NCBI GenBank assembly: GCA_964501355.1
Contig: CAZCSM010000003.1
Span: 1,660-65,659 of the forward strand
Direction of reading: 5' to 3'
Length of the DNA stretch: 64,000 nucleotides
From: an uncultured Candidatus Saccharibacteria bacterium
GTDB lineage: Bacteria; Patescibacteriota; Dojkabacteria; CAZCSM01
Shown: positions 10,081-28,497 of the stretch, piece by piece
Position numbering within the stretch: the first letter of the stretch is position 1
Layout: each line of letters begins with the position of its first letter
Program-made: the position numbers and the translations under genes
Notes under the pieces: model-generated
The model's database searches: none
Told to the model about the DNA's origin: nothing
What the model saw: the letters and a program-made list of their open reading frames with translations, nothing else

Positions 10081-10623
10081 ATGTTTGAAAAAAAGAAGAA
10101 GGAAAATTGCGAATGCAAAGATTGCAACTGTAGTACAGATGAATGCAGGAATGTCTGTGAAAACTGTAAAAGGCTAGAGCAAGAAGTTTCTGATTTAAAC
10201 GATAAATTAAAAAGAGTTCTTGCAGATTATCAGAATTTGAAGAGAAGAACTGCAGAGGAAAAATCTGAACTTTCATTCTATTCAAACCTTGCCGTGCTGG
10301 GAAGCCTTCTTGATGTCTCAGATGACTTCGATTTAGCAATTGAGAAATATACGAAGACAGAAGCTGATGAAGCAGATTGGTTAACCGGAATAAAAATGGT
10401 TAGAAATAAGATGAGTAACTTACTTGAAAATCAGCAGGTTACAGAAGTTGTTTGCCAGATTGATGACGAATTTAATCCAGATTTTCATGAAGCATTAAGC
10501 ACGATGAAAGTTGACGATGAGAAGATGGATGGAATCATTATGGGGATAATTAGAAAAGGGTATATGTTAGGCGATCGTGTTTTGAGACCGGCAAGAGTAG
10601 TTGTTGGTAAATTTGAGAAATAA
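10081..10623 (+). CDS. grpE: Nucleotide exchange factor GrpE with an unusual N-terminal Cys-rich extension
   Basis: Coiled-coil plus C-terminal GrpE beta domain ('KGYMLGDRVLRPARVVVGK'). The N-terminal 30 aa contain CxC-x2-C-x-C-x5-C-x3-C-x2-C. Confidence 0.85.
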   Translation: MFEKKKKENCECKDCNCSTDECRNVCENCKRLEQEVSDLNDKLKRVLADYQNLKRRTAEEKSELSFYSNLAVLGSLLDVSDDFDLAIEKYTKTEADEADWLTGIKMVRNKMSNLLENQQVTEVVCQIDDEFNPDFHEALSTMKVDDEKMDGIIMGIIRKGYMLGDRVLRPARVVVGKFEK

Positions 10624-14055: not shown

Positions 14056-14619
14056 TTACATCTCTACTATCTGGAACAGTACTTGCCCCTTTACTGTTTC
14101 TGTATCAAGTACATCAGCTGTTACAGAAAGTTTGATATCTTCTGCCTGGTATGGATCAAGACTGATTGCGAAATAGTCTTGATTAGGTTTCTTCGAGAAG
14201 CTATACAACTCAAATGTTCCACCGTCGACGAGCATCCTGACTTCCAATTCGTTCATATTCGGATTAGTAACGGTCTTTGGTGTTATTCGTAAAGAAATTC
14301 GATCGTTCGTCTTATTTGTTAATTTGAAAAGATCATAGGTTACAGTTGCCTCCGAATATGCCGTGAATTCAATTTCCTGCTGGTCAAGATATCTTCCATC
14401 AAAAGTTCCTGATTGATCCCTAACAACAAGATCCATTCCATAATTTATTAATGGAGTTTTTGAATATGTTTCATTTTGTGTTGTTGCACCTTTAACTTCA
14501 ACCGTTTGTTCCTTTGGTGTCGGTGCAATCAATCCTACATAAATTAGTGTCCCAAAACTGACCACAGCTACAATTACTGCTAAGCTGTACGGGTGGAATA
14601 GGTTAAACTTTTTCTCCAT
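14056..14619 (-). CDS. Small membrane-anchored extracellular beta-rich protein, the last gene of the surface cluster
   Basis: N-terminal TM helix 'LAVIVAVVSFGTLIYVGLI' followed by a Thr/Val-rich domain. It overlaps the upstream gene by 17 nt. Confidence 0.6.
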   Translation of the reverse strand: MEKKFNLFHPYSLAVIVAVVSFGTLIYVGLIAPTPKEQTVEVKGATTQNETYSKTPLINYGMDLVVRDQSGTFDGRYLDQQEIEFTAYSEATVTYDLFKLTNKTNDRISLRITPKTVTNPNMNELEVRMLVDGGTFELYSFSKKPNQDYFAISLDPYQAEDIKLSVTADVLDTETVKGQVLFQIVEM

Positions 14620-15637
14620 TTGTTTCTTCTGTATCTAATTTATTTATGTTTGGCAGTTTTGATTTTACTTCTGGCTCTTTCTCGATCTTTACCTTTTTAA
14701 GCTCTGTTTTTTTCTTATCTTTATTATATCCGACAATTATTAACAGAATCACAACCACTAGTACTGCGATAACGACTTTCCAAGGAATTACCCAGAAATA
14801 GACTTCTGAACTTAGAGGTAAATCGTCAACACCATAAGCAAGTTCAACTTCTGCCTTATAGATGCCAAATCTCCAAGTTCCTTTCCATTCTGTTTCCCAA
14901 AGTCTAACTGCGGTAGGAAAGATGTTTGCCGGTTTTATAATCCATTCTGCGACTTCATTTCCCAAAGTGTTTTTTATTGTTACCGTTCCGCTTACTGGAA
15001 TATGGGTATTCCCATCATTTAGTATTTTCAATGTAAGAGGAATTGGGCCATATTCTGAAAAGAATGGTGCGGAGAACTCAGTAATTTCTGCAGACTCTTT
15101 AATATCACCTGATACAGTTAGTTTAACATAGGTTCCAAGCTTGTGTTCTACAAGAGGACCTACAACTTCTTCCTCGACTATTACCGGTGTAAATAGAATG
15201 CTTGTATAATGTCCTCCTGGTGTAGCGTCTTGTGGAATATCAATTGTAAAAGGAACATCTTTTGATTCGTTTGGTTCCAATAAAAATTCTTGGTACTCTT
15301 CTGCGACACCAATCCATTTGCTCATTGACCAAATGGATGAACCGGATTCAACAAATGTAGGAACACCGCTCTCAGACTCAACAATGAAGTCGAATAATTC
15401 GGTTTTAATTTTTAGTGTTTCTTCACTTAAGTTTGTAACTTTTGTCGTGCTATTCAGTGTGTCACCAGGATTACCATATAGATCAACACTCAAGTTGCCG
15501 GTTTCATCCGCTGAGCCACTCACAACGATTTTGCTCTCTTCGGTCCCACCTGTTTGTGCATAGGCTGGAATTGCAAATCCAAGAAGTAAAGTGGAAGCAA
15601 CTAATATTTTTGGCAGTGTTTTGTTCATTGTTTTCAT
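14603..15637 (-). CDS. Cell-surface protein with an N-terminal signal peptide and a C-terminal TM anchor plus Lys-rich tail (DUF916/DUF3324-like architecture)
   Basis: Signal peptide 'LLLGFAIPAYAQ', C-terminal 'VIAVLVVVILLIIVGYNKDKKK'. It is paralogous to the C-terminal half of the 16815-18140 product (block 'GTVTIKN.LGNEV' versus 'GTIKIRDRKGDIV'). Confidence 0.6.
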   Translation of the reverse strand: MKTMNKTLPKILVASTLLLGFAIPAYAQTGGTEESKIVVSGSADETGNLSVDLYGNPGDTLNSTTKVTNLSEETLKIKTELFDFIVESESGVPTFVESGSSIWSMSKWIGVAEEYQEFLLEPNESKDVPFTIDIPQDATPGGHYTSILFTPVIVEEEVVGPLVEHKLGTYVKLTVSGDIKESAEITEFSAPFFSEYGPIPLTLKILNDGNTHIPVSGTVTIKNTLGNEVAEWIIKPANIFPTAVRLWETEWKGTWRFGIYKAEVELAYGVDDLPLSSEVYFWVIPWKVVIAVLVVVILLIIVGYNKDKKKTELKKVKIEKEPEVKSKLPNINKLDTEETNGEKV

Positions 15638-15651
15638 TAATTATGCAATAT

Positions 15652-16752
15652 CTAGAAAATTGGTGTTGACACGTAAGTAATAGTTGTTCCAGAATAGTTT
15701 CCTGTTGGTTGTGAGGTATTTACTTCAATTTGATAAGTGATTGTTGTTGCCTCTGCTGTAACTGGTCCGTTATTATATGCGACTTCATAAGCCGTGCTTG
15801 TGCTCCAAGCTGCATATGTATCTGCTAATGAAAACCTCGTAGTTGTTCCTGTTCCAAGAACTCCGTCATTCGTATGATAACCCAGATATCCAGTGTTTGT
15901 ATTTGGTGTTATGCTTACCGGTGCTGCCCAAGCTGTTGGCGCTGCATTAGTTCCTGTAAACCAGTCAATATCATTTGCCCCTGAAGTTAACTGTGCATCT
16001 GCGATGGTTGTAGTTGTATATCCACCAGTTGCATTGGTTGAAATGGTTAGTGTTTGTGTGCAAGTCTCTGCTGTACCTGGAATTATTGACGCAAAATCAA
16101 CACTTGTTGCAGTTACTGTTCCGCTATCACAGGAACCTCCAGCAATTGCAAAAGATAGGGTTGTATCGATTTGAGCTGTAATTGTAACTCCAGAGACAAT
16201 TCCGACTCTCATGTTAATTGAATCATATACCGGTGAACCTCCTCCATCTGTTGTAGTTACTGCAACTGTACAGATATTCGAATCATTTCCTGCTCCGCAA
16301 ACTGCACCGGAAGGATTTTCAACTTTGTTTGTATCTCCGATGGTTACTCTTATCCATGTTGTTGCAGCAATATCTGTAGCTCCAAGAGGGATTGTTACAT
16401 TAGGTGATGAAACTACAATCGTTCCTGCCGTGTAAGAGGCCCAACTTGGAGTACCTCCAGTTCCGCCAGTTTCTACCGTAACATCTGTATTTGCAAGGGA
16501 ATTAAAAGTGAAATCGGCTTCGAATGCGAATCGGATCTCATCGTTACCTCCACCACCGGTTCCAGATAATGCTGTTGGGTTTCTGAAGACAAATGTGTGA
16601 ATTGCATCTGTTGACGGAAGAGATGTTTCCAATGTATCGCTTGCGCTCGTCAACGAATCAGATAACACTCTTTGTGGTAGAGAAACAAGTAGCAATAATG
16701 CTATTGTAACAATCACTAAACTCGTTCTGATATTTTTATTAAAAACTTTCAC
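15652..16752 (-). CDS. Secreted Thr/Gly-rich beta-protein with a WxL-like/pilin-like C-terminal strand
   Basis: Signal peptide, then a Thr/Gly/Ala-rich low-complexity beta region. It ends '...PTGNYSGTTITYVSTPIF', a motif shared with the 245-aa protein. Confidence 0.55.
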   Translation of the reverse strand: MKVFNKNIRTSLVIVTIALLLLVSLPQRVLSDSLTSASDTLETSLPSTDAIHTFVFRNPTALSGTGGGGNDEIRFAFEADFTFNSLANTDVTVETGGTGGTPSWASYTAGTIVVSSPNVTIPLGATDIAATTWIRVTIGDTNKVENPSGAVCGAGNDSNICTVAVTTTDGGGSPVYDSINMRVGIVSGVTITAQIDTTLSFAIAGGSCDSGTVTATSVDFASIIPGTAETCTQTLTISTNATGGYTTTTIADAQLTSGANDIDWFTGTNAAPTAWAAPVSITPNTNTGYLGYHTNDGVLGTGTTTRFSLADTYAAWSTSTAYEVAYNNGPVTAEATTITYQIEVNTSQPTGNYSGTTITYVSTPIF

Positions 16753-16814
16753 GATGATTATTCGTCAATATATATAAATTCTTATACTCATTAAATTGTC
16801 TTTTGCCAATCTTG

Positions 16815-18140
16815 TCAAGTCCCTTGCGATCTTTTTGTCCTCCGAATCGCAATAATAGTTATAGAACAAAGACAAACTAGAACTACAAGAGAGTTTATTA
16901 TCAATTTAATAGGAATGACATAAAATGATATTGAACTATTTAAGCCAACGGTGCCATCTTCACTTTTTACTTCTATCTCTGCATTATATTTCCCAAACAG
17001 ATACTTAAATTCCCATGAAGGAGAATCTTCTTGACTCTCCAATCGCCTTATTGTTCCGGGAAGAACAGTTGTTTTATCAAGAACAATCGTATCAACAATA
17101 TCACCTTTTCGATCTCTAATTTTTATCGTCCCATAAGCATTGTAGTGTAGTGTTCCTGTATTATTCACTCTTGCTGTAAACTCAACCGGGGAAATAAAGT
17201 TCCAGTCGTTCTTTACAGAAAATTCAACAATTTGACCGCTCTTCACAAGTTCTCCAAGGATTTCTCCTGAGTGAACAAAGTTGATATAACTTAGTATTCC
17301 GATTTTTCCGGTAACAAAAGACCCTGAACCGACTGTTGTTGATGCGGTGGGTATTGGTTCAATAAAAATTACATAATAGTATTCACCTTGTGGCAAAGTC
17401 TTTTCACCGTAAAAGTTGGCCGTAATAATTTTTGATGAATTGGCTGGGATTTTGACGGTGGATTCACTGAAGATAATTTCAATTTCTTTCTTTTCTTTTT
17501 CAAGAAAGTTTAATTTTCCATATTCTCCCACGATCTCAAATTTTTCGTAATAAACAAGATATTCTTGATCCAGGTTATTTAAGTTATAAACTTTAATTTC
17601 TTCATTCTTCGTTTCTTCTGCAACCAAATCCATTTCAAATTTAATTGGGTCTACGCCAAGAGAAGTTTTATCTTGAGCGTGAATTGGATGAGGGAAGAGT
17701 ATAGATGCTAGAGATAATATGGACATGAATGGAATTAGAGTAGCTAGTAGTTGGTAGCTAGTAGTTGTGGACTTTCTGATGCTTGAGATAAGCGCATTTA
17801 TTAACTTGGCAATCTCAATGCTTGTATTGGCTAATTCTTTAAAGACGTCTCGTTTCATGTAATCCAAATCTTTTGCAATTATTAATTGGTTTTGAACTTC
17901 CGTTAATGAACTAACGGAGACTTGATAGAATTGGATCTTTTCCTTTCTCGACCTTCTCGAAAATCCTTCTGCCAAATTACTGGTTATTGAAACGGCGGCT
18001 CGTCGTATTTGTGAGGAAAGTCCATATAATTCTTCCTTTGGAAATTTGTTTGTAATGCTGTAAATATCTAAAACAAAAACATGTCCTTTTTGCCAGGCTA
18101 TTAAATCGGTAAAGTTTTTAATCTTCTTGTTGTCGTCCAT
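16815..18140 (-). CDS. Fusion ORF: an N-terminal Avd-like four-helix-bundle domain (TIGR02436 / 23S-rRNA-IVS protein family) joined in frame to a signal-peptide surface protein with a C-terminal TM anchor
   Basis: Residues 1-~120 'IAWQKGHVFVLDIYSITNKFPKEELYGLSSQIRRAAVSITSNLAEGF...' are a classic four-helix-bundle protein with a strong RBS (AGGAG N6 ATG at 18140). The remainder starts at an internal Met (~17736) with signal peptide 'MSILSLASILFPHPIHAQ' and ends with a TM plus 'RRTKRSQGT'. Imperfect direct repeats GTAGCTAGCAACTAG / CTAGCTACCAACTACTAGCTAC flank the bundle module. Confidence 0.6.
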   Translation of the reverse strand: MDDNKKIKNFTDLIAWQKGHVFVLDIYSITNKFPKEELYGLSSQIRRAAVSITSNLAEGFSRRSRKEKIQFYQVSVSSLTEVQNQLIIAKDLDYMKRDVFKELANTSIEIAKLINALISSIRKSTTTSYQLLATLIPFMSILSLASILFPHPIHAQDKTSLGVDPIKFEMDLVAEETKNEEIKVYNLNNLDQEYLVYYEKFEIVGEYGKLNFLEKEKKEIEIIFSESTVKIPANSSKIITANFYGEKTLPQGEYYYVIFIEPIPTASTTVGSGSFVTGKIGILSYINFVHSGEILGELVKSGQIVEFSVKNDWNFISPVEFTARVNNTGTLHYNAYGTIKIRDRKGDIVDTIVLDKTTVLPGTIRRLESQEDSPSWEFKYLFGKYNAEIEVKSEDGTVGLNSSISFYVIPIKLIINSLVVLVCLCSITIIAIRRTKRSQGT

Positions 18141-18177
18141 ATATTTCTCCTAGTTGCTAGCTACGAATTCCCATCTA

Positions 18178-18915
18178 CTAAAAAGTTGCTGTCAGAATGT
18201 AAACTATCGTATTTTCATATGTTCCTGCCGGCTGAATATCGTCAACATTTACCTGATAAGTTACTCTAGTTGAAGCCCCTGTTTCTGGTGTACTTCCATT
18301 TTTGCTCATAATCTCTTGTGGAATTTCAGAGAAACTATAGTCTGCAAATTCCCTGTAACCTGAGGTAAGTGTTGCGTCTGTTCCTGTCAGATTTTCAACA
18401 GTAAATCCGAAACCGAACTCTGTATCATAATCTGTCCAAGAACCTTCGGTACTTTCTGTAATTGAATTGAATGGCAGGTCATCACCATTTGCTGCTCCGT
18501 ACGGAACCTTTTGCGTTCCGGTGACGTTCTTCAATTTGAAAGGTGTCGTTTCATATGTAGTTACTTTGTATCCTTCGGGACTATTTGTAATGACGGTAAT
18601 GTCAGAGCTTCCTGTTGCGGGTGTTCTCGGTGTCAGTGTTCCGAAGTCGACGACAGTATTTGAGATCGTGAAAGATAGGGGAATAAGGTCATAATACATG
18701 ACTCCTGACTGTATTATGAAATTATCACTTACAATTTCTCCTGAGGTTGTTTGACCCAATGCATCATTAACTTTGTAGTTATCTGATTCTTTTTCTTGCC
18801 CCATTTGATCAATTGTGTCGTTTTCGACATCAAGGCTTTGCGCAAATGTAAATACGGGGAACATGATTATTCCTGCGAATATGGTGAAGATGATGAATTT
18901 GCGAAAAGCTCTCAC
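18178..18915 (-). CDS. Secreted beta-protein with a WxL-like/pilin-like C-terminal strand, the first gene of the surface cluster
   Basis: Signal peptide 'IIFTIFAGIIMFPVFTFAQ', C-terminal 'PAGTYENTIVYILTATF'. Confidence 0.55.
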   Translation of the reverse strand: MRAFRKFIIFTIFAGIIMFPVFTFAQSLDVENDTIDQMGQEKESDNYKVNDALGQTTSGEIVSDNFIIQSGVMYYDLIPLSFTISNTVVDFGTLTPRTPATGSSDITVITNSPEGYKVTTYETTPFKLKNVTGTQKVPYGAANGDDLPFNSITESTEGSWTDYDTEFGFGFTVENLTGTDATLTSGYREFADYSFSEIPQEIMSKNGSTPETGASTRVTYQVNVDDIQPAGTYENTIVYILTATF

Positions 18916-19180
18916 GTGTTTGTTGTTAGATTTATCTAACTTTATATTAGCACGAGAGAATGGAATATGGAATCTGGAATTTTGAATCTGGCGAATTCAG
19001 TTGTTTCTTAATTCCTGTAACTGATACTGTGACTGTAACTATAACCGATTGTTGCGTAAGTCATACTCTAGATCCCGGATCACGCTTTGCCCCGCAAGCG
19101 GGACAAGCTGTCCGGGATGACACCTTCTTTTGAGTATTTGTTAATTGGTAATTGGAAATTGGTAATTTGGAATTCTTTGT

Positions 19181-21025
19181 CTATCCTCTCTTCATTATTG
19201 TCAAAAAGGCATCGGAAGGAATTTCTACATTTCCGAATTTCTTCAGTTTCAACTTTCCTTTCTTTTGTCTATCCAAAACTTTCATCTTTCGAGTAATATC
19301 TCCACCGTAAAGTTTTGCAGTAACATCTTTTCGCATTGCGGAAATGTCTGCTCTTGCAATAATGTCAGCTCCGATTGCGGCTTGAATTGGAATTTTAAAT
19401 TGTTGTTTTGGAATAATATCTTTCAATTTTTCGACAACTGTCATCCCTTCTTCTCGAGCGTGTGATTTGTGTGTAAGGAAAGACATCGGTTCAATAATTT
19501 TATTATTAACCAAAATATCGACCTTCTGAACTTCTCCTGCTCTAAAATCTTTCAGCTTATAATCCATTGAAGCATAGCCTTGGCTTAAACTTTTCATTTT
19601 GTCGAAAAAGTCAGTAATTAGTTCTGCCATCGGAACTTCATATCGCAAGATTGCTCTCGCTAAATCTTGATCTACACTATTCTTATCCAAGTATTCTGTA
19701 TCTTTGTAGTTTCCTCTTTTGTCCTGACAAAGCTGCATAATTGAACCTAAATATCTTGCTGGTACAATTATTTCAACGTTTGCCCAAGGCTCTCGAATTT
19801 CATCAATATATGAAGGATCCGGCATATCTTGAGGAGTCTCAATTACTTCCACATTTCCTTTTGTTAATAAAACCTCGTATCGAACACTTGGAACTGTTAA
19901 TAATGTTTCTACATCAAATTCTCGTTCAAGTCGTTCTTTCACAATTTCCATATGCAAAAGTCCCAAGAACCCGCATCTGTAACCCGGGCCAAGCGCAGAA
20001 GAAACTTGTGGTGTATAACTTAATGCGGCATCGTTTAGTGCTAATTTTTCCAGAGCTTCACGAAATCCTTTGTAATTATCATTGCTCATTGGGAACATAC
20101 TCGCGTAAACCATTGGTAGCGGTTGTCGATAACCTGCTAACGGTTCATAATTTTCGTCGTACTCGTCATTAATCGCAAGAGTGTCTCCAACTCTAATATC
20201 TCGGATTTCTTTTAACCCTGTTGCAATATATCCGACTTCGCCGGTTAAAATTTGATTTGCTGGATTCATATGAGGCGTTAGAAATCCAAATTCAATGGGC
20301 TCGAAAACGGTTTTTGTTCTAACGCATCTTAGCTTAGGATATAACCCTTTTTTCTCGATAGCACCTTCAAATATTCGAACGAGAGCAACTGCTCCTTTAT
20401 GTTCATCATAAAATGAATCGAAAATAAGAGCTTTTGTTTTCGCACTTGTATCTCCACGCGGGTGAGGGATAATTTCTACGACTTTGTTTAATAATTCAAC
20501 AACACCAATTCCGGTTTTTCCAGAAGTCATTAATATCTCGTCTTCTTTAAAACCAAACATTTCAACCAATTCTCTTTTTGTTTTTTCAATTTCTGCATTT
20601 GGTAAATCGACCTTATTAATAACCGGTATTATTTCCAAGTCATTTTCAAGCGCTTGAAAAATAGTGCTTACAGTTTGTGCTTCGATTCCTTGTGTAGCGT
20701 CAACTAGAAGTAGTGCTCCTTCACAAGCGGCGAGAGATCTGGAAACTTCATAAGCGAAATCAACATGTCCCGGTGTATCAATTAGATTCAGAATATATTC
20801 CTCGTCATTTACAACCCAACGCATTTTTACCGCTTGAAGTTTTATGGTAATGCCTTTTTCTTGCTCCAGTTCAAGCGTATCCATCATGCGATCTTTTACT
20901 TTTCTCTGTTCAATCGTTCCTGTTGTTTCTAATAGTCTATCGGCAAGAGTAGATTTCCCATGATCAATATGGGCTATTATGCTGAAATTTCGTATGTGGT
21001 TTTGTTTATCTTGATTACTTTGCAT
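19181..21025 (-). CDS. lepA: Elongation factor 4 (LepA)
   Basis: 'IRNFSIIAHIDHGKSTLADRLL' G1 motif and the LepA-specific C-terminal domain. Length 614 aa. Confidence 0.97.
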   Translation of the reverse strand: MQSNQDKQNHIRNFSIIAHIDHGKSTLADRLLETTGTIEQRKVKDRMMDTLELEQEKGITIKLQAVKMRWVVNDEEYILNLIDTPGHVDFAYEVSRSLAACEGALLLVDATQGIEAQTVSTIFQALENDLEIIPVINKVDLPNAEIEKTKRELVEMFGFKEDEILMTSGKTGIGVVELLNKVVEIIPHPRGDTSAKTKALIFDSFYDEHKGAVALVRIFEGAIEKKGLYPKLRCVRTKTVFEPIEFGFLTPHMNPANQILTGEVGYIATGLKEIRDIRVGDTLAINDEYDENYEPLAGYRQPLPMVYASMFPMSNDNYKGFREALEKLALNDAALSYTPQVSSALGPGYRCGFLGLLHMEIVKERLEREFDVETLLTVPSVRYEVLLTKGNVEVIETPQDMPDPSYIDEIREPWANVEIIVPARYLGSIMQLCQDKRGNYKDTEYLDKNSVDQDLARAILRYEVPMAELITDFFDKMKSLSQGYASMDYKLKDFRAGEVQKVDILVNNKIIEPMSFLTHKSHAREEGMTVVEKLKDIIPKQQFKIPIQAAIGADIIARADISAMRKDVTAKLYGGDITRKMKVLDRQKKGKLKLKKFGNVEIPSDAFLTIMKRG

Positions 21026-21274
21026 ATCGTATGGATTGTACTATAAAAGGGTAATAGAATAAAGAATAAAGAATAAAGAAGAAAGAATGAGGAATCTAGC
21101 GAAGCGGGAAACGAATCTAGAATTTGGAATCTAGAATCTAGCAAGAAACGGGTCAATATTTGAATGGATAAATAAAGGTGTTCTCTCTCATTTAAGTAGA
21201 GAGGACCAACATTGTCCCAGGATTGTAACGATTTTGTTCAAATTGGCACAATGTGGCTCTACGTAGTACAATTT

Positions 21275-21898
21275 TTATTTCGCGAAAATATCGGCCCTTA
21301 TACTGAAATATGAAGGCTCTTGCAAGTCTTTGCTAATGAATACTCCAATTGTTAGCCATTCGTTTGGCTGTAAAGTTATAGCGGGTTCAAATCCCGATTT
21401 TTTTACAATATCCGAAAGGGTAAATGCTGTATCGTCAATTTTTAACTTGAGATTTTCTAATTGTTCATCTTTAAAATAATCGGTAACATGTATGACAATT
21501 GTTTCGCTTCTATCGGAAGTGTTAACGATTCGAAGTAAATCTTCATTTCTATCTTGAGTTGAATCTTTGTAAGCTCTAATGGTCATTTCATAAGAATCAT
21601 TTTCTTTTTTTGCTTCTTCAATGACTATACTTTCCAAGGTTGTTGGGAGAAGTTCGGTTTTGTAAGAAATGACTTCATCATCAACTGTCGTTTGAACACC
21701 GAGAACATCCTTTTTCGCAAGGGATAACGTTTTCACAGAAGGTGTTCTGGTAGTTGGACTAAATCCTCCAAATACGAGAACTGGAATAGCTAGAAGTGCG
21801 ACGAAAGATGCTACTAGTAATGTTTCTGCGATTGTGTTGGCAATGTTTTTCATTAAAATCTTTTGCAAATTAATTTTGCTTTTTTCCAGTATAGTCAA
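21275..21898 (-). CDS. Hypothetical membrane-anchored protein
   Basis: N-terminal TM helix. It overlaps the upstream ORF at 21870-21898. Confidence 0.5.
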   Translation of the reverse strand: MTILEKSKINLQKILMKNIANTIAETLLVASFVALLAIPVLVFGGFSPTTRTPSVKTLSLAKKDVLGVQTTVDDEVISYKTELLPTTLESIVIEEAKKENDSYEMTIRAYKDSTQDRNEDLLRIVNTSDRSETIVIHVTDYFKDEQLENLKLKIDDTAFTLSDIVKKSGFEPAITLQPNEWLTIGVFISKDLQEPSYFSIRADIFAK

Positions 21899-22406
21899 TT
21901 TCTAGATTCTTCACCAGTACAAGTGTAGAAATTATTCCAAACCCGACTGCAATTATCGCCGTCCAAATATGTGATTCTGCTTTCGCGGCATTTACAGTTG
22001 TTAGAATAATAGCTAACCAGAGAAATGCGAGCCATACGATTGCTTTTGTGTAAATTGATAAAGAAGATTCAATCGAAGATAATCTGTCTTTATCAGCAAT
22101 TTGAATTAACTTTTGTGGCGTAATTCTCGAATCCTGAAAATGATTTAATTTATATAAAACATAATTAAAACCAATAACTGGAACAATTAGCATTAATAAA
22201 TTTGAAAAAGTGTTTACCGTTAGCAAATCATTTAATGATTGAAATGTTATTTCATAAGGAATTATCTTTCCATTTTCGACTTGGTTTATTTCATATTTCA
22301 GTCCAAATAGGATTACCGCAAGAACCATACCACCAACTTTCGAAAGTACCAAAGCAAGAGACGGTATTATTGATTCATCAACAAGTTTTATTAATGTTTT
22401 CGACAT
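21870..22406 (-). CDS. Hypothetical integral membrane protein
   Basis: Four or five predicted TM helices. Confidence 0.5.
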   Translation of the reverse strand: MSKTLIKLVDESIIPSLALVLSKVGGMVLAVILFGLKYEINQVENGKIIPYEITFQSLNDLLTVNTFSNLLMLIVPVIGFNYVLYKLNHFQDSRITPQKLIQIADKDRLSSIESSLSIYTKAIVWLAFLWLAIILTTVNAAKAESHIWTAIIAVGFGIISTLVLVKNLEIDYTGKKQN

Positions 22407-22461
22407 GAGACTTGGCAGATTTATTACATCTTTAGAATAGAGAATAATTGGGGAAGAGTAA

Positions 22462-22624
22462 AGGGGAATTCAAAATGCAAATATTTCGATAAACTCAGCA
22501 CAAGTCTCAAAAATCAAATCAAAAATAAAAATATAATTCAGTATAAAGGATGTATCAAAGTAGTTGCAAAATAGATAAAAATGGTTACAAAGTTGTTAAA
22601 ACATTGTTCAAACGTAGATAAAAC
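22462..22624 (+). repeat. Direct repeat copy A (~160 bp), upstream boundary of the DGR island
   Basis: AGGGGAATTCAAAATGCAAA...AAAAATAAAAATATAATTCAGTATAAAG..TCAAAGTAGTTGCAAAATAGATA.AAATGGTTACAAAGTTGTTAAAACATTGTTCAAACGT.GATAAAA is nearly identical to 27046-27194. Confidence 0.85.
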
Positions 22625-22927
22625 GCCCTGTTTCTCCTCCTTTTTTACCCACGCCTTGGCGGGGCAAGCAAGGAGGGGTGATTCCGAAGGAATCGGGGTG
22701 GTTGAGGGAAGTGCAATAGGGTTCCAAAACCTTTCTGCGAAAAGATAGTTTGATAAACTCATCACAGGTTTAGGAACCATCGGTAGTTTTTAATTTGGAA
22801 TTTTGGTAATTGTAATTTGTTTGGAAATTGAGATTTGGAAATTGGTGCTTAAATGTTGTGCCAGTCACTCACTTTCGGGTGACGGTTTACAATCAGAACG
22901 CTAAATGAACATAAGTTGTCATTGCGA

Positions 22928-23016
22928 GGAGTGTAACGACGAAGCAATCTCTTGAAAATGGGATTGCCACGCTCGCCCCGCCTTGGCGGGACAAGCTCGC
23001 AATGACAAAACACACT
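22928..23016. mobile_element. MITE-like palindromic element with 11-bp terminal inverted repeats GTCATTGCGAG / CTCGCAATGAC
   Basis: Perfect 11-bp TIRs enclose GC-rich hairpins. The internal sequence recurs at 46286-46310 (ATTGCGAGGAtTGTgACGAtGAAG) and 19081-19110 (CACGCT.GCCCCGC..GCGGGACAAGCT). Confidence 0.6.
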
Positions 23017-23101
23017 CATTGAACAGCCCTACTTCTTCTTGACTTCACTCCACACTTTACGTATTCTGAATATGTAGAATTCTATATTACACAAATCCAT
23101 C

Positions 23102-24031
23102 ATGAAAATTCAGAAACGTGATATTTTAATCTTTTCTATCGGTGTGCTCATTACCTTAGCATTTTCTCCATTCTTCAAATCTCTCGTTTCCGCGGAGCAA
23201 TCCGGCACTACTCCAAATAGCGGAGCAACATCATACATCAAACAACTTTACGATTCGCTGGTATCACTAGGCAATGGTTCTGATTCATCGGGATCATGGG
23301 GAGATTGGGGAGGGATGTGGAATAGGATTCGCTCATCTTCGGAATGGGTGCCAAGCGGAGATGCAACTGCGGGAGATGTGGTGGCGGGGAAGATGTTTTA
23401 TGGCAATTCAAGAACGCAGATGATTGGGACTGGTCCAGAACCGATAGATTTTTCACTTTTTCAGTACAGTGCCAGAGACGATTACGCAGGTGCATACTAT
23501 ACAGGACTTGGACCTGAAGACTATCAGGGCGAGGAAGCGGAATGGACAGATCATAGTGTTGATGCTGATGTGGTCTGGAAAGATGAACGGGCAGGTATGT
23601 ACTGGACCGCTGACAGAGGAATTCTGACTGCGAATAATTTCACAATGGCAACCTGTCAATTTTTCACATCAGAGCCTAGATCGAGTTATGACGGGAGCGA
23701 CTTGACATGTGGGGGGACAGCAGAAGAACCTCATGCGATAAACTACTGTGCTACACTAGATTATGGAGGAAGAACCGACTGGTATCTACCATCTCAGAAG
23801 GAGCTAATGATGGCATACATAGATGGTATGTACAATCAGGCAGGAGCTACACCAGCAGAAGCAGCAGCATTTACGTATGGCACTTCAGGAGGTGGTGGTT
23901 ATCGGTTCTGGTCGTCTTCCGAGGTGTCTAACAATCCAACAAACGCTTGGACCGTAAACATGAGCATCGGCAACACGAACTACACCATTAAGACGAATGC
24001 GCTCGCCGTTAGGTGTGTAGCGAGGGACTGA
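23102..24031 (+). CDS. DGR target protein: a secreted/membrane-anchored DUF1566 (Lcl-like C-type-lectin fold) protein with a C-terminal variable region
   Basis: N-terminal signal/TM segment. 'CATLDYGGRTDWYLPSQKEL' is the DUF1566 hallmark. The C-terminus '...YRFWSSSEVSNNPTNAWTVNMSIGNTNYTIKTNALAVRCVARD' is the VR, matched by the TR at 24361-24483. Confidence 0.85.
   Translation: MKIQKRDILIFSIGVLITLAFSPFFKSLVSAEQSGTTPNSGATSYIKQLYDSLVSLGNGSDSSGSWGDWGGMWNRIRSSSEWVPSGDATAGDVVAGKMFYGNSRTQMIGTGPEPIDFSLFQYSARDDYAGAYYTGLGPEDYQGEEAEWTDHSVDADVVWKDERAGMYWTADRGILTANNFTMATCQFFTSEPRSSYDGSDLTCGGTAEEPHAINYCATLDYGGRTDWYLPSQKELMMAYIDGMYNQAGATPAEAAAFTYGTSGGGGYRFWSSSEVSNNPTNAWTVNMSIGNTNYTIKTNALAVRCVARD
23906..24028 (+). 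other. DGR variable region (VR)
   Basis: 123 bp aligning with the TR. The 5' 45 bp are identical. The 3' part shows 11 substitutions, 10 of them at TR adenines (AAC->ACC/AGC/ATC/TAC/CTC, AAT->ATT, ACA->ACG, GCA->GCG). It ends GTTAGGTGTGTAGCGAGGGAC. Confidence 0.85.
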
Positions 24032-24065
24032 TGATTAGAATTTAATAATTTCTTATTTAAAATTT

Positions 24066-24091
24066 ATCATCCGATCTTTAGATCGGATGAT
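24066..24091 (+). promoter_or_regulatory. Perfect stem-loop 38 bp downstream of the VR (ATCATCCGATC-TTTA-GATCGGATGAT)
   Basis: 11-bp perfect stem with a 4-nt loop. Its position matches the DNA hairpin/cruciform that enhances homing in characterised DGRs. Confidence 0.6.
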
Positions 24092-24360
24092 TTGCGACAA
24101 AAAACTACTATATTGAAAAAACTAGTAAAGTGGTGTAGATTATTGTCGCGTGGATTCTATAGTTACAACTTCATCGTAAGCTCTGAGCTATAGGGAAGGC
24201 CCGATTTTCAGTCCGTTCCACTGCACCTGATTTTTTCAGGTATTATTATTCAGTGAGACTTTTTCGCTGAAATGCGAATCAGTCTTATGGTGGATTCTGT
24301 GTTAGACAAGATTCTAATGTCTTGTCTTGCAGAATAAAGTCAGTGGGAAATAGCGTTGTG

Positions 24361-24483
24361 TTCTGGTCGTCTTCCGAGGTGTCTAACAATCCAACAAACG
24401 CTTGGAACGTAAACTTGAACAACGGCAACACGAACAACAACAATAAGACAAATGCAAACGCCGTTAGGTGTGTAGCGAGGGAC
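24361..24483 (+). other. DGR template repeat (TR), adenine-rich (AAC-codon rich)
   Basis: TTCTGGTCGTCTTCCGAGGTGTCTAACAATCCAACAAACGCTTGGAACGTAAACTTGAACAACGGCAACACGAACAACAACAATAAGACAAATGCAAACGCCGTTAGGTGTGTAGCGAGGGAC, in the same orientation as the VR (plus strand). Confidence 0.85.
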
Positions 24484-24497
24484 TTATCATCGGGCTT

Positions 24498-24857
24498 TTA
24501 CGCAGTCTGGTTCTCCGACCACTTGATCCATCCGTTAAGCATTTTAGCGATTTCCTCATTTTGGGATATTATGTAAGCATACTGTTGGGAAGCGATAAGT
24601 TTCAACTCATGTGCCATACGCAGTCGTGATTTCAACCTGTCAAACGAAGCAGAAGCTTGACGAATAATTCCAGCCTTTTGAGTGTTTTGGCGAGTATTCG
24701 TAGCAATTATTTTATCAAGAGTTTCCCATGCACAGTCAATTATTGATTGACCAAGCGTGTACTTATATTCTTTTTTGAAATTCCTGACAAGTAGATACAA
24801 ATATTTCAAAAGTTTGTATGTGGCTACATACAGAGGAAGTTCGTCTAATTTGCTCAT
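24498..24857 (-). CDS. avd: DGR accessory variability determinant (Avd)
   Basis: 119-aa basic helical protein immediately downstream of and 4-bp overlapping the RT. Size and position are typical of Avd. Its 3' end abuts the TR. Confidence 0.75.
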   Translation of the reverse strand: MSKLDELPLYVATYKLLKYLYLLVRNFKKEYKYTLGQSIIDCAWETLDKIIATNTRQNTQKAGIIRQASASFDRLKSRLRMAHELKLIASQQYAYIISQNEEIAKMLNGWIKWSENQTA

Positions 24858-26056
24858 TTTTGTTTTGCAACTAAAGTAAAATATGAATAATTGTCATCAA
24901 TTGGCACTAAGTACTCTTTCAAAGTTCCAAAATGATTTTCATACAGATCTCTACGAAGATTGAAGCAGTTCGCATGTTTAAAATGTCCGTAGTACGAATT
25001 AACCATAGCTAGCATCTTTCTTAACTCTTGCTTTGTTGGGGGTGTAGACAACGGTAATACCATCTGTTTTTGATTTTGCGAAACAAGCAGTTTCCCCTGA
25101 TTGAAGTAATGAAGCTTCGTTTTGAGATTTTGCACCACACGTTTTCTTGCCAGAGTATATTTAGGCTTAACTATATAACCAATAAAATCTATTCCTGAAT
25201 AAACTGAATTGTATTTATCCTTATTTGGGTGAAGTATCAATTGTAAATTTTTCTGTAGAAAAGTGTTTATCTTTTTCCTCCACTGTTTTATCTTATTCAT
25301 ATCATTTGAAATAACGACAAAATCATCAACATACCGTATGTAGTGCTTGATTTTCAACTCACGTTTTACGTACTGATCAAGCTCATTCAAGTATACGTTA
25401 GCAAAAAATTGTGATGTTAAATTTCCTATTGGAAGTCCTTTGTCTTTCCCAGCTTTAAAAAGCGTTTTGTGAGGCGGTATCTGTTTTAGAAGAGATCTAT
25501 CACCTTTGAAGAAAAAATTATCGGTAGGATTATGGTTAAGAATAATTTCTGTGAGCCAGATCAGGTCATCCTTTCTATGTTTTGGAAAATGATTTTCTAT
25601 CTCACTGATGATGATTTCTTTTAGAATATTTTTATCAATCGAAGTAAAAAAGCTTCTGACATCAAACTGCCCATAAAACGCTTTTTTGCTGTAATTTCCT
25701 GTTACGGATCGAATAGCTTTCTTGAGACAGGTTATGGCAGTCAGAAGCCCTTTGTTTTTCCTGCATGCAAAAGAAGAATAGATGAACCGTTTTTCAAAAT
25801 GAGGCTCAAGGTGTGATACAAGCAGATGATGGATAATCCTATCTCTAAAATCGGCGGCAAACACCTCTCTGATCTTCGGATATGTAACCACAAAACAGAT
25901 AGACTTGCCAGGTCTGTACGTTCTGTTTTTCAGTTCTTCAAAAAGCTTCAGGATACTGGATTCAAAATTCATCTCAAACTTAAGAGAGTTAATGGTATTT
26001 CGTTTGTTCTTTCTGCAGGAAAGGTAAGCTTTTAATAAATCTTTTAGTGTAAACAT
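24854..26056 (-). CDS. DGR reverse transcriptase
   Basis: RT motifs 'PKIREVFAADFRDRIIHHLL' and 'YVDDFVV' (YxDD). The DGR-specific 'LPIGNLTSQFFANVYLNELD' (I/LGxxxSQ) replaces the QGxxxSP of other RTs. Confidence 0.9.
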   Translation of the reverse strand: MFTLKDLLKAYLSCRKNKRNTINSLKFEMNFESSILKLFEELKNRTYRPGKSICFVVTYPKIREVFAADFRDRIIHHLLVSHLEPHFEKRFIYSSFACRKNKGLLTAITCLKKAIRSVTGNYSKKAFYGQFDVRSFFTSIDKNILKEIIISEIENHFPKHRKDDLIWLTEIILNHNPTDNFFFKGDRSLLKQIPPHKTLFKAGKDKGLPIGNLTSQFFANVYLNELDQYVKRELKIKHYIRYVDDFVVISNDMNKIKQWRKKINTFLQKNLQLILHPNKDKYNSVYSGIDFIGYIVKPKYTLARKRVVQNLKTKLHYFNQGKLLVSQNQKQMVLPLSTPPTKQELRKMLAMVNSYYGHFKHANCFNLRRDLYENHFGTLKEYLVPIDDNYSYFTLVAKQK

Positions 26057-26122
26057 ATGAAAAGATAAGAAAGATGTTTAAAAATCTCTTCAATTATTGT
26101 ACTATGGTATTATAATAATTAA

Positions 26123-27001
26123 TTGATTATGAAAAACATGCTCAAAATACGAATTATTGTAACCCTTCTTCCTCTTTTGTTAGCGACATTTATAGTTCCA
26201 AGTGCAACTTTTGCTGCTTCGGTTTCTCTCAAAGGTACAGCTGAAGTTGTGAATACTGGCAATTCACTATTATTCGAATCGAATAACAGTGCTGTTACTG
26301 TTGATACTGAAACTGGTAATTTATCAGGATTTGTTTGGTCGGAAGATTTGGGTTGGATTGATTTTGATAATAATAGCGGTGCTAATTCTGCAAAGATTAA
26401 TCTGGAAACAGGTGTAGTTTCAGGCCTTGCTTATGTAGTTAACACTGCTTCCATTGTTGATTTTACAAATTTCAATAGCAATGTCATTGTTAATTTAGAA
26501 ACTGGTGTTTTCACTGGCTTTGCATGGTCAGTCGAGCTTGGGTGGATTGATTTTTCAACTGTAAATACAGGTGGAGTGAAATTGGTGCTTGATGAAAACT
26601 TTGTAAATATAACAACGATCGATTCTGAAACTGCACCGGTAGATGGTGTGTGGAAAGTGACTAATAAAAAACCAGTACTTTCAGGAATAACTGCACCAAA
26701 TGCTGTAGTGACTATAACTTTAACGAGAGACGGAACATCAGTTGATGTAGAGGTTATTGCTGATGCTGAAGGTAAATGGAGTTGGACTCCAACAAGTGAT
26801 TTGGTGCTTGGCGCTTATACTGTGAGAATCGTGTCAGAAAATGCAGATGGCGTAATTTCCGAGACTACATTTACTTTAAATATAATGATTTCTGATTTAG
26901 CAAGCTCTGGACTTAGTAATCCGTATGTGATGATTGTTCTAACGATTGTTGGAGTCTTGGTTGTGGTTTTTTCGGCTAAGAAGAAGGTCGTAACAATGTA
27001 G
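26123..27001 (+). CDS. Secreted surface protein with a signal peptide and a C-terminal TM anchor, inside the DGR island
   Basis: Signal peptide 'LLPLLLATFIVPSATFAAS'. It has repeated 'TG..SG..WSE.LGWIDF' motifs and C-terminal 'VMIVLTIVGVLVVVFSAKKK'. Confidence 0.6.
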   Translation: MIMKNMLKIRIIVTLLPLLLATFIVPSATFAASVSLKGTAEVVNTGNSLLFESNNSAVTVDTETGNLSGFVWSEDLGWIDFDNNSGANSAKINLETGVVSGLAYVVNTASIVDFTNFNSNVIVNLETGVFTGFAWSVELGWIDFSTVNTGGVKLVLDENFVNITTIDSETAPVDGVWKVTNKKPVLSGITAPNAVVTITLTRDGTSVDVEVIADAEGKWSWTPTSDLVLGAYTVRIVSENADGVISETTFTLNIMISDLASSGLSNPYVMIVLTIVGVLVVVFSAKKKVVTM

Positions 27002-27045
27002 ATGCAATGTTGAATCAATGTGGTAGCAATGTTGAAGAATCGTAG

Positions 27046-27194
27046 AGGGGAATTCAAAATGCAAAAATCAAAAATCAAAATAACAAATCAAAAATAAAAA
27101 TATAATTCAGTATAAAGAACGTTTCAAAGTAGTTGCAAAATAGATACAAAATGGTTACAAAGTTGTTAAAACATTGTTCAAACGTGGATAAAAG
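27046..27194 (+). repeat. Direct repeat copy B, downstream boundary of the DGR island
   Basis: See copy A. It is followed by a dense array of GC-rich hairpins at 27200-27410 (CCTTCC-TAATAA-GGAAGG, CCCCTTCTTTTTAGAGGGG, GTCAC-TTC-GTGAC, CCTTCC-TTTTTA-GGAAGG). Confidence 0.85.
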
Positions 27195-27379
27195 GTAGAA
27201 TAATCCTTCCTAATAAGGAAGGTGGGCTTTGCGAAGCAAAGGTCGGAAGGTGTAAACAATTAAACACACCCCGGCTTCACTTTGTTCAGTCCCCCTTCTT
27301 TTTAGAGGGGATCTGACGGAAGGCGTTGTAGAGGATACCTTCTGTCACTTCGTGACACCTTCCTTTTTAGGAAGGAAGA

Positions 27380-27407
27380 ACAAAAAAGGTCCAGACATGT
27401 CTGGACC
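27380..27407 (-). terminator. rpsT terminator: a perfect 20-bp palindrome GGTCCAGACATGTCTGGACC followed by a U-run on the minus strand
   Basis: On the minus strand the hairpin is followed by TTTTTTGTTCTTCC, 24 nt after the rpsT stop. Confidence 0.75.
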
Positions 27408-27430
27408 CTACGAGTTCTGAAAATTCCTAC

Positions 27431-27694
27431 TTATTTTGCAATAGAGTTTACTTTCTTTGCCATTCTAGATTTTAGTCTAGCGGCTGTGTTTGGGTGCATA
27501 AATCTTCTTGCTGCTTTATCAAGAGCTTTTGTTGCTTCTTGAAGTTTGGTTGTAGCTGTTTTTGCATCTTTTTCTACAACGGCTTTATTCGTTTCTTTAA
27601 CCAATCTCTTCGTTTTTACTCGAATCTTTTTGTTAATTTCAGCTTTTCTTCCTTGTACTCTGATTGCTTTTTTTGCGTTTGCTAAATTTGCCAC
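27431..27694 (-). CDS. rpsT: 30S ribosomal protein S20
   Basis: 'ANLANAKKAIRVQGRKAEINKKIRVKTK...ARRFMHPNTAARLKSRMAKKVN' matches S20 ('ANIKSAKKR...HKNKAAR'). The likely GTG start is at 27694. The longer 137-aa ORF call carries a non-S20 N-terminal extension. Confidence 0.8.
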   Translation of the reverse strand: MANLANAKKAIRVQGRKAEINKKIRVKTKRLVKETNKAVVEKDAKTATTKLQEATKALDKAARRFMHPNTAARLKSRMAKKVNSIAK

Positions 27695-28089
27695 GTTCTT
27701 AAAATTTTTAATAATTATTGTATATTTACCTTTGCGTTTTGATTGGGTCTGAGCTTCCAATCGATATGAATAGTACCAATAAATAGGTGGTAAGTCAATT
27801 ATTAATTGGGCAATATAGTAAATCATTTTAAGTAGTTTTTCCATAAATTTGTGAAAATCTCAAATTTAAAATTACAAATTTCAAATAAATTACAAATTCA
27901 AAAAATAAAATCACAAGCTATTATATATTTGTTATTTTTGTAAAAAACGTCACTTGATATAGTTTTAAATTTGAGTTTTTGGTAATTGAGGGTTGTTTGG
28001 AAATTGGTGCTTGGGATTTGGAAATTAAAGGCTGTTTCTACAGCCGCATCTGTAGTATAATTTCGATACTTCAATTTAGATTTGTAATA

Positions 28090-28497
28090 ATGTTAATTAC
28101 ACACAGTTTATATACAGATGGCGGTTCTCGTGGAAATCCGGGTCCTGCAGCTTATGGTTGTGCACTTTACGATGAGGCTGGAATTTTAGTTGATATTGAT
28201 GCGGCGTTTTTGGGAAATAAGACAAATAATTATGCGGAATATCAAGGACTTATTTGTGGATTGAAACTTGCACAGAGATCCGGTGTAACTGATATTGTCT
28301 GTTATTTAGATAGTGAACTGATTGTTAAACAGGTTAATGGTGAGTACAAAGTTAAACATGAAAATATTAAGCCTTTGTACAAGGAGTTAATGGAACTTGT
28401 TGAAACATTTGATTCTTTTTCTTTCTCTCATGTTTATAGAGAAAAGAATAAAGTTGCGGATAAATTGGTGAATTTGATTTTAGATGCGGTGAAATGA
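28090..28497 (+). CDS. rnhA: Ribonuclease H (RNase HI-like)
   Basis: 'YTDGGSRGNPGPAAYG', 'NNYAEYQGLI', 'DSELIVKQVNGEY' and 'REKNKVADKLVN' give the RNase H catalytic DEDD arrangement. The start is taken at the internal ATG 28090; the ORF-track start at 27979 lies in repeat DNA. Confidence 0.8.
   Translation: MLITHSLYTDGGSRGNPGPAAYGCALYDEAGILVDIDAAFLGNKTNNYAEYQGLICGLKLAQRSGVTDIVCYLDSELIVKQVNGEYKVKHENIKPLYKELMELVETFDSFSFSHVYREKNKVADKLVNLILDAVK

Follow-up and report, generated by a model that had tools for sequence, protein, structure and literature searches.

A convergent diversity-generating retroelement of a Candidatus Saccharibacteria bacterium with a predicted, separately promoted template RNA and a structured 5' leader

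How is the template RNA of a diversity-generating retroelement (DGR) made when the template repeat (TR) lies on the strand opposite its reverse transcriptase (RT) gene? This question was raised by a locus in a 64,000-nt stretch of DNA (hereafter the window; positions 1,660 to 65,659 of contig CAZCSM010000003.1, assembly GCA_964501355.1) from an uncultured Candidatus Saccharibacteria bacterium, in which the target gene with its variable repeat (VR) and the TR are on the plus strand, whereas RT and avd are on the minus strand. With a probability of roughly 80%, we regard this locus as a functional DGR composed of two convergent transcription units, in which the TR RNA is produced separately from the avd-RT unit.

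The locus is a complete DGR, as the first-pass annotation of this DNA had proposed; a DGR-type RT, Avd, an adenine-biased TR/VR pair and an Lcl_C/DUF1566 target were all confirmed by family matches and TR/VR comparison. The RT (Pfam RVT_1, 7e-16) carries the sequences LPIGNLTSQFF and RYVDDF; the IGNLTSQ and YVDD motifs and the 4-bp overlap of avd with RT, all reported in the earlier annotation, were found in the translations of the open reading frames (ORFs). Its best PDB match was the bRT of phage BPP-1 (8ub7 and related entries, E = 3e-32), far above the retron and group II intron RTs (8e-9 or weaker), and its matches in the phage collection were exclusively DGR-type RTs of at most 44% identity. 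A retron was rejected, as the RT scored far below the retron cut-off (52 bits against 235 for NF038233) and a TR/VR pair and Avd are present. A group II intron was rejected as well, with 103 bits against a cut-off of 300 for TIGR04416 and no group II intron domains found by Rfam in 22000-27500. By its motifs and similarity scores, the RT belongs to the DGR type. The avd product matched Pfam bAvd (68.2 bits, 1e-18, cut-off 40) and had no match among the PDB sequences.

The VR and the TR were located where they had been annotated, each 123 nt long, and GTTAGGTGTGTAGCGAGGGAC terminates both of them. They differ at 11 positions, 10 of which are adenines in the TR, and the codons varied are mostly AAC or AAT in the TR. 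Given 43 adenines in 123 nt, the probability that at least 10 of 11 mismatches fall on adenines is 2.0e-4 (1.4e-3 if restricted to the 3' 77 nt), which upholds the adenine bias noted earlier. The identical 5' stretch, previously given as 45 bp, is 46 nt long, with one extra shared base upstream (G at 23905 and 24360). No further target was found in the window, where GTTAGGTGTGTAGCGAGGGAC (a 21-mer) and the 5' 21-mer each occurred only twice with up to three mismatches allowed. An 84-amino acid ORF (24322-24576, plus strand) running through the TR into antisense avd was rejected as an annotation artefact of the repeat, typical of TRs; gene callers label its counterparts in three related loci (L161, L165 and L166) as short Lcl_C proteins or fragments.

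Two additional copies of the element were obtained from the 90%-identity cluster of the target protein, on contigs from unrelated sequencing runs (L199, SRR31966184; L200, SRR29243436). Aligned over 1450 positions, these copies showed 23 differences, 22 of which cluster inside the VR (P = 6e-23); 21 of these 22 fall on TR adenines, and a single base differs outside the VR. This distribution thus points to natural diversification, and the element is apparently active. The hypervariability that had been expected at TR adenines was accordingly seen on two independent assemblies rather than on reads. When the three VRs were pooled, 44 of the 46 differences from the TR were at adenines (P = 4e-18), and 29 of the 43 TR adenines, spanning 24385-24458, were found to vary. 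The VR was the only hypervariable stretch among the three natural copies, and the ~420 nt from 24029 to 24447 (spacer, leader and the assembled part of the TR) were identical in all three. A comparison of L161 with L162 as a test of VR variation was uninformative, since the two have the same sequence over their shared length.

The only VR/TR mismatch outside adenines is T24415 of the TR, which is A23960 in the VR (a TTG versus an ATG codon). This change is private to the window copy, both other copies retaining T, and fits either drift, as previously suggested, or an occasional non-adenine error. L199 has one non-adenine change of its own, and such changes are frequent in the Candidate Phyla Radiation (CPR) set (Wu et al., PMC5758913). 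It might be argued from this mismatch, and from the fact that the evidence of activity for this genome comes from assembly and not from reads, that the element is an inactive relic with decaying genes, whose TR/VR differences date from past activity. Such a relic is very improbable, given that all three ORFs are intact, the catalytic YVDD is present, and three copies carry three VRs differing at TR adenines beside ~420 nt of identical non-coding sequence.

The target matched Pfam Lcl_C (PF07603, formerly DUF1566; E = 1.4e-16, residues 160-306), in line with the earlier claim that it ends in a DUF1566 C-type-lectin scaffold whose final ~40 codons, 41 by our count, are the VR. The VR-encoded part contains CATLDYGGRTDWYLPSQKEL, and no match was found among the PDB sequences. 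Judged from the family match, by which the fold is predicted, the target is a secreted or anchored protein of the Lcl_C/C-type-lectin type. The 3' end common to both repeats is a G+C-rich stretch of 24 nt (24005-24028 in the VR, 24460-24483 in the TR), which lies 3' of the last adenine-directed difference (24003/24458) and is the same in both copies. By analogy with BPP-1 (PMC5758913), this stretch would act in the initiation of mutagenic homing (IMH); DGRs with an identical IMH in TR and VR were noted by Wu et al. (PMC5758913). Additionally, an inverted repeat follows the VR at 24066-24091 (DNA fold z = -4.7). L161 retains it, as does L163, where a compensatory change is present, and hairpins made from other sequences occupy its position in L002 and L083. 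An inverted repeat 3' of the VR promotes homing in the phage element and occurs in about one third of DGRs (Wu et al., PMC5758913), and the hairpin of the window is a candidate counterpart of it.

The placement of the TR on the strand opposite avd and RT, reported in the first-pass annotation, was confirmed. The implied novelty of this arrangement was not: this RT clade has it as a rule, and a TR and RT on different strands were already reported by Wu et al. 2018 (PMC5758913). We gathered 165 loci with RT relatives (cited here by L numbers) from GTDB genomes, JGI metagenomes and exact look-ups, in which TR/VR pairs were located by adenine bias and avd by profile. The nearest RT relatives bore the names Patescibacteria, Saccharibacteria, Dojkabacteria, Microgenomates and similar. 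A TR was found in 118 of 166 regions, the window counted, and in 36 of these 118 the TR and VR were opposite to the RT strand; among relatives with at least 56% RT identity and a TR found, the TR was inverted in every one. The arrangement of the window, RT-avd-(TR)-(VR), was shared by L161/L162 (85% RT identity), L163 (79%), L165 (77%), L164 (67%), L083 (57%) and L082 (56%). In L002 (62%), the TR was inverted and avd was not detected by the profile used, and in L166, L168 and L171 the RT-avd order was found with the leader RNA described below on the opposite strand. In close neighbours at 61-63% identity, avd was inverted too, and another group of relatives had the order RT-(TR)-(avd)-(VR). 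In contrast, 63 loci had co-oriented avd-TR-RT genes, with median gaps of 156 nt between avd and TR and 13 nt between TR and RT, the latter too small for a phage-style spacer. The back-to-front orientation of the TR is therefore normal for the clade and a recognised variation.

Several further features of the relatives were recorded. L164 (Ga0315273_10011820) has two VRs for one TR (7845-7984 and 10357-10484), with an ISL3 transposase gene between them; the second lies ~4.2 kb from the TR, and an AAA-ATPase/DUF4143 gene stands between the TR and the nearer VR. The DGRs of relatives adjoin HTH (helix-turn-helix), Phage_rep_O and large serine recombinase genes (L161 8226-11184, L163 4542-5926, L167 713-2314), which suggests a mobile-element context for the DGR in these relatives. 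No recombinase was seen near the DGR of the window.

With the TR facing avd, the template RNA would have to be transcribed from a plus-strand promoter in the spacer, as had been supposed earlier, and a sigma-70-like promoter (TTGAAA, 17 nt, TAGATT) was indeed predicted there by a promoter scan. The consensus TTGACA-17/18-TAnnnT was found at the same position in L161, L163, L164, L165, L166, L137, L171, L170 and others, and in most loci with an inverted or stand-alone TR unit the last base of the -10 box stands 1-2 nt ahead of where the RNA model described below begins. These boxes were absent from loci with avd directly upstream on the same strand. The position-conserved boxes support a predicted sigma-70-like promoter of the TR RNA's own.

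Were there no dedicated promoter, the TR RNA would be the 3' part of target read-through and the -35/-10 boxes would be incidental to an A+T-rich spacer. The hairpin after the target stop codon, which has no T-run following it and would be a poor intrinsic terminator, fits such read-through, and so does the window promoter itself, which matches the consensus at 9 of 12 positions and is not significant alone. The recurrence of TTGACA-17/18-TAnnnT immediately before the RNA start, and its loss where avd is upstream on the same strand, argue the other way, as does helix A (see below), in which nucleotides immediately past the predicted start are paired to the tail, as would be the case if the RNA had a defined 5' end. 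Moreover, the nearest target gene in L164 is ~1.7 kb from the TR, with another gene intervening. Read-through as the source of the TR RNA is thus unlikely, and we continue with a TR RNA transcribed from its own promoter.

Between this promoter and the TR lies a structured leader. In an alignment of the window, L161, L163 and L165 from the VR to avd, the 329-nt spacer was blockwise conserved, with conservation over ~210 nt into the TR. RNAalifold on eight sequences gave a structure of 43 pairs, 21 of them compensatory. A covariance model (R1) built from these sequences, which scores the window at 196.9 bits, matched 34 loci, once in each (E 1e-51 to 3e-5), always directly 5' of the TR and on the TR strand, across four architectures: the window type, RT-(avd)-(TR), avd-leader-TR-RT and RT-TR-avd. 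In the alignment of these 34 loci, both partners vary in 42 of the 43 pairs; the score for covariation was 0.72, compared with 0.08-0.16 when the 3' partner was slid, and none of 500 shuffles reached 0.72. A search of 22000-27500, leader included, against Rfam 15 gave no match at E up to 1. A scan of IMG/VR for the leader pattern gave 27 hits, of which the covariance model confirmed none, and no DNA match to leader plus TR was found in the phage collection. Hairpin P3 (24225-24241) was flagged as terminator-like by a scan and was rejected as a terminator, being an internal helix of the conserved RNA.

The leader and the sequence beyond the TR are joined by two helices. In helix B, GCCCGA (24199-24204) pairs with TCGGGC (24490-24495), 6-12 nt past the TR. 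Its 8-bp core was present in 12 of 12 window-type sequences, with compensatory changes at four positions (GCCC:GGGC, GCTT:AAGC, GCTC:GAGC and GCCCAAA:TTTGGGC). In other architectures, the same places were complementary with different sequences (for example, GGGCATAAAGTT:AACTTTATGCCC, GATCACT:AGTGATC, AAACACT:AGTGTTT and AACCACT:AGTGGTT). In helix A, GCGT (24148-24151), right after the predicted start site, pairs with ACGC (24500-24503), and the variants GCGC:GCGC, GAGT:ACTC, AGCG:CGCT, GAGC:GCTC and TGCAT:ATGCA were found. The minimum free energy fold of the single sequence (-117.5 kcal/mol, z = -5.2) also yielded helices A and B, together with a third pairing of the leader AGTCC (24210-24214) with GGACT at the TR 3' end (24480-24484). 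In the co-oriented subgroup (L037, L050 and L135), no consistent register was found for this third pairing, and the claim is limited to the clade of the window.

Pairing between leader and tail requires that both be carried, along with the TR, on a single plus-strand RNA, which is predicted to be ~358 nt long (24148 to about 24505) and to be antisense to avd over its stop codon. The TR is separated by ~14 nt from this stop codon (24498-24500, other strand), which is overlapped by the 3' strand of helix A; the covarying helix at 24500-24503 agrees with the earlier claim that the plus-strand RNA reads into the 3' end of avd.

The same overlap of the convergent units at the avd stop codon could point to another function, namely that the leader is a conserved RNA outside reverse transcription, acting as a regulatory or terminator element or in antisense control of avd and RT. 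A T-run follows helix A in several relatives, and a role of the leader in protein binding or priming is only predicted. Yet the leader stands directly 5' of the TR in every architecture, including the co-oriented avd-leader-TR-RT loci, where no overlap exists and where the short gap between TR and RT leaves no room for another accessory RNA. In addition, the helices reach from the leader over the TR to the tail, and the invariant leader motif pairs with the TR 3' end. We therefore consider a purely regulatory leader quite improbable, less probable still than read-through.

If the TR RNA is a separate template with its own leader, the locus would work as follows. The minus-strand unit encodes RT and then Avd, and the plus strand carries the target, the hairpin and then the unit of predicted promoter, leader, TR and tail. 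RT and Avd would bind the TR RNA in trans. Synthesis of cDNA would start at the TR 3' end, where G24480-T24484 pairs with A24210-C24214; helices A and B, not a hairpin, would bring the TR 3' end to the leader. The TR would be copied with misincorporation opposite adenines up to a stop at P2 just upstream of the TR, and the cDNA would replace the VR, guided by the common G+C-rich 3' end and the downstream hairpin. Relative to BPP-1, the accessory RNA appears to have changed from the 3' to the 5' flank of the TR, which could allow the TR unit to work in either orientation to the RT.

This scheme draws on phage BPP-1 (mtd-avd-TR-brt), whose RNA 3' of the TR starts with an Avd-binding stem-loop, a four-base primer strand pairing with the TR 3' end, and a G, followed by a 'stop' duplex strand with its partner just upstream of the TR, a short stem-loop and adenosines that are unpaired, a single strand of 13 nt located around the RT thumb, and a long interrupted RT-binding stem (bioRxiv 10.1101/2023.10.23.563531). 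The leader of the window contains, in order, AGTCC, G24215, the P2 5' strand (with its partner at 24339-24349, 11 nt upstream of the TR), P3, a single strand and P4. From this order of elements, we infer that the leader may be the counterpart of the BPP-1 spacer, relocated 5' of the TR. Judged by the gap sizes of the 63 co-oriented loci, this 5' placement seems to extend through the family. The two systems also share a DGR-type RT, Avd, an adenine-specific TR/VR pair, a C-type-lectin-fold target whose 3' end holds the VR, a common G+C-rich 3' end and a hairpin past the VR. Unlike in BPP-1, the target and TR of the window are followed by (avd)(RT) on the opposite strand, where avd comes after RT; the TR of the window has a predicted promoter of its own, and the 5' and 3' ends of its RNA pair. 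The accessory RNA of the window (~210 nt) lies 5' of the TR, after which only ~22 nt remain, whereas BPP-1 has a 140-nt spacer 3' of the TR, and the BPP-1-type layout was not found in the window. Furthermore, its target is a cellular secreted or anchored Lcl_C protein, whereas that of BPP-1 is a phage tail fibre.

Several points weigh against this interpretation. The likeness to the BPP-1 spacer is one of element order and size, with no match of sequence or model, and Rfam, which should hold the RT-10 motif, gave no match to the window RNA. The promoter is predicted, as are the start site and the 3' end of the RNA; the promoter match of the window has a shuffle P of ~0.15 and draws its support from positional conservation. 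In the 34-locus alignment, 93.9% of the cells were paired, a percentage inflated by fitting the sequences to the model structure, although the margin is large. The core TCC:GGA of the AGTCC:GGACT pairing is nearly invariant and has three compensatory cases only (TCT:AGA in L137, A-T for G-C in L003 and T-A for A-T in L072), and flanking positions are unpaired in several relatives. The Avd scored 72.2 bits in NCBIfam DivGenRetAVD, under the equivalog cut-off of 80, and the natural variants are assembled contigs, not read pile-ups.

Comparison with other known systems places the element among DGRs of the CPR type, and the DGRs of CPR/Patescibacteria and DPANN are among the closest to it. Like members of the CPR set of Wu et al. 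2018 (PMC5758913), it has a single target, occasional non-adenine substitutions, a non-canonical gene order and components on different strands; the window order is TR-(avd)-(RT), whereas their dominant type is TR-(avd)-RT (B3). The layout, and that only, resembles a retron msr-msd, in that a structured priming domain lies 5' of the template, the RNA ends pair (like a1/a2) and the RT is supplied separately. The element departs from a retron in its RT, which is not retron-type, in its template, a protein-coding repeat that has a cognate VR, and in the presence of Avd; for priming by a 2'-OH, only a candidate duplex is predicted. A conserved RNA structure within the DGR template RNA is also a feature of the RT-10 motif (Weinberg et al. 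2017, PMC5737381), which is the BPP-1 TR-to-RT spacer, whereas the window region had no Rfam match. The leader RNA is probably new, being described neither in Rfam nor in the BPP-1 studies, Wu et al. 2018 or Weinberg et al. 2017, a comparison that did not cover Paul et al. 2017. The promoter and the leader are probably the new part, and the element itself is a further DGR of the CPR type. The coordinates of all features are collected in Table 1.

Table 1. Features of the retroelement and of the adjacent surface-protein gene, in window coordinates
Feature	Position	Strand	Remarks
Target gene	23102-24031	+	309 amino acids; N-terminal signal/anchor, Lcl_C domain; VR is the last 41 codons
VR	23906-24028	+	123 nt; last 41 codons of the target ORF, in frame
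IMH-like G+C-rich VR 3' end	24005-24028	+	identical to TR 24460-24483; divergence directly after
Inverted repeat, candidate DGR target-site hairpin/cruciform	24066-24091	+	11-bp stem, 4-nt loop, 37 nt past the VR
Sigma-70-like promoter, predicted	24113-24141	+	TTGAAA, 17 nt, TAGATT; promoter scan
Structured TR-RNA leader	24148-24360	+	~210 nt, immediately 5' of the TR
Helix A, 5' strand	24148-24151	+	
P1	24155-24197	+	
Helix B, 5' strand	24199-24204	+	
Invariant AGTCCG	24210-24215	+	
P2	24216-24224 (5' strand), 24339-24349 (3' strand)	+	
P3 hairpin	24225-24241	+	followed by a conserved single strand (GGUAUUA...)
P4	24253-24288	+	GNRA-type loop (U-GNAA-U cap), long interrupted stem
P5	24295-24334	+	variable
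TR	24361-24483	+	123 nt; 43 adenines; AAC-rich
TR-RNA 3' tail	24484-24505	+	helix B 3' strand 24490-24495; helix A 3' strand 24500-24503
avd	24498-24857	-	119 amino acids; Pfam bAvd; downstream of RT
DGR reverse transcriptase	24854-26056	-	400 amino acids; RVT_1; stop overlaps avd start by 4 bp
Divergent surface-protein gene	26123-27001	+	secreted, membrane-anchored; WSEDLGWIDF repeats; Big_13 (Pfam); upstream of RT

Divergent to RT, the gene at 26123-27001 encodes a product with two ETG.xSGxxWSEDLGWIDF repeats. Homologues at the same position were found in L161 (4375-4926, 53% identical) and L163 (308-862), ending in LPKTG and LPETG sortase signals, respectively, and L166 and L170 have Big_6 or Big_13 proteins there. 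The gene may travel with the DGR, although its membership is uncertain. Two copies of a ~165-nt direct repeat (~92% identical, 22455-22625 and 27037-27195), the only ones in the window, exactly enclose a 4.58-kb segment made up of the target, TR RNA, avd, RT and this surface-protein gene. Within the repeat are an AAA.T.GTT.C pattern with a period of 11 nt and a strong minus-strand promoter-like site (TTGATA/TTGAAA, 17 nt, TATATT). This repeat may be the trace of a cassette insertion; no flanking direct repeats were found in L161 and L163.

Additional observations were made in the surroundings. Shortly before the target gene, at 22918-23006, there is a palindromic G+C-rich element (GTCATTGCGAG ... 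CTCGCAATGAC, enclosing CCCCGCCTTGGCGGGACAAGC), a partial copy of which is located 327 nt away at 22649-22669. A 441-amino acid ORF on the minus strand (16815-18140), 6.4 kb from the DGR, begins with ~120 residues of the 23S rRNA intervening-sequence protein family (E = 2e-36), a four-helix-bundle fold family like that of Avd, with a weak bAvd match; its ~320 further residues had no Pfam match. An RNase H gene (27979-28497, plus strand; RVT_3/RNase_H, E = 3e-28) lies 1.9 kb from RT and adjoins rpsT (27431-27844); it is probably a housekeeping gene and could have a role in processing the RNA-cDNA hybrid. Around the DGR, between ~19000 and 28000, the GC skew turns from negative to positive, and the genes change from the minus (14056-22406) to the plus strand (28716 onward). 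The flanking repeat contains DnaA-box-like sequences, CGTGGATAA (27183-27191) and CGTAGATAA (22613-22621). This region could be a replication origin or terminus region.

Beyond the clade of the window, avd and TR are ~140 nt apart in Burkholderia- and Pseudomonas-type DGRs as well (L071-L080, ~40% RT identity), and in the genome loci only ~10-20 nt separate the TR from RT. This group includes the phage records OR683404.1 and MT701587.1 and cultured phages such as Magia and Haboob. No detection by the covariance model R1 was obtained in these loci. The 5'-side accessory RNA may extend to such experimentally tractable phages. More broadly, and with somewhat less than even odds, a large DGR lineage, with relatives down to ~40% RT identity in Patescibacteria and several other phyla, may use a rearranged template RNA, in which a 5' domain recruits RT and Avd and both primes and stops cDNA synthesis, the ends are paired and the module acts in trans. 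If this holds, a self-contained promoter-leader-TR-tail module would account for a TR found in both orientations and on both sides of the RT.

The element is one more DGR among many in ultra-small bacteria, and its three VR variants show activity in the environment. How DGRs carry out reverse transcription has been modelled mechanistically in a single phage only, in which the essential RNA is downstream of the template, and a DGR survey built on this phage model confined itself to 40 nt upstream and 100 nt downstream of TRs. [quoted passage not shown]

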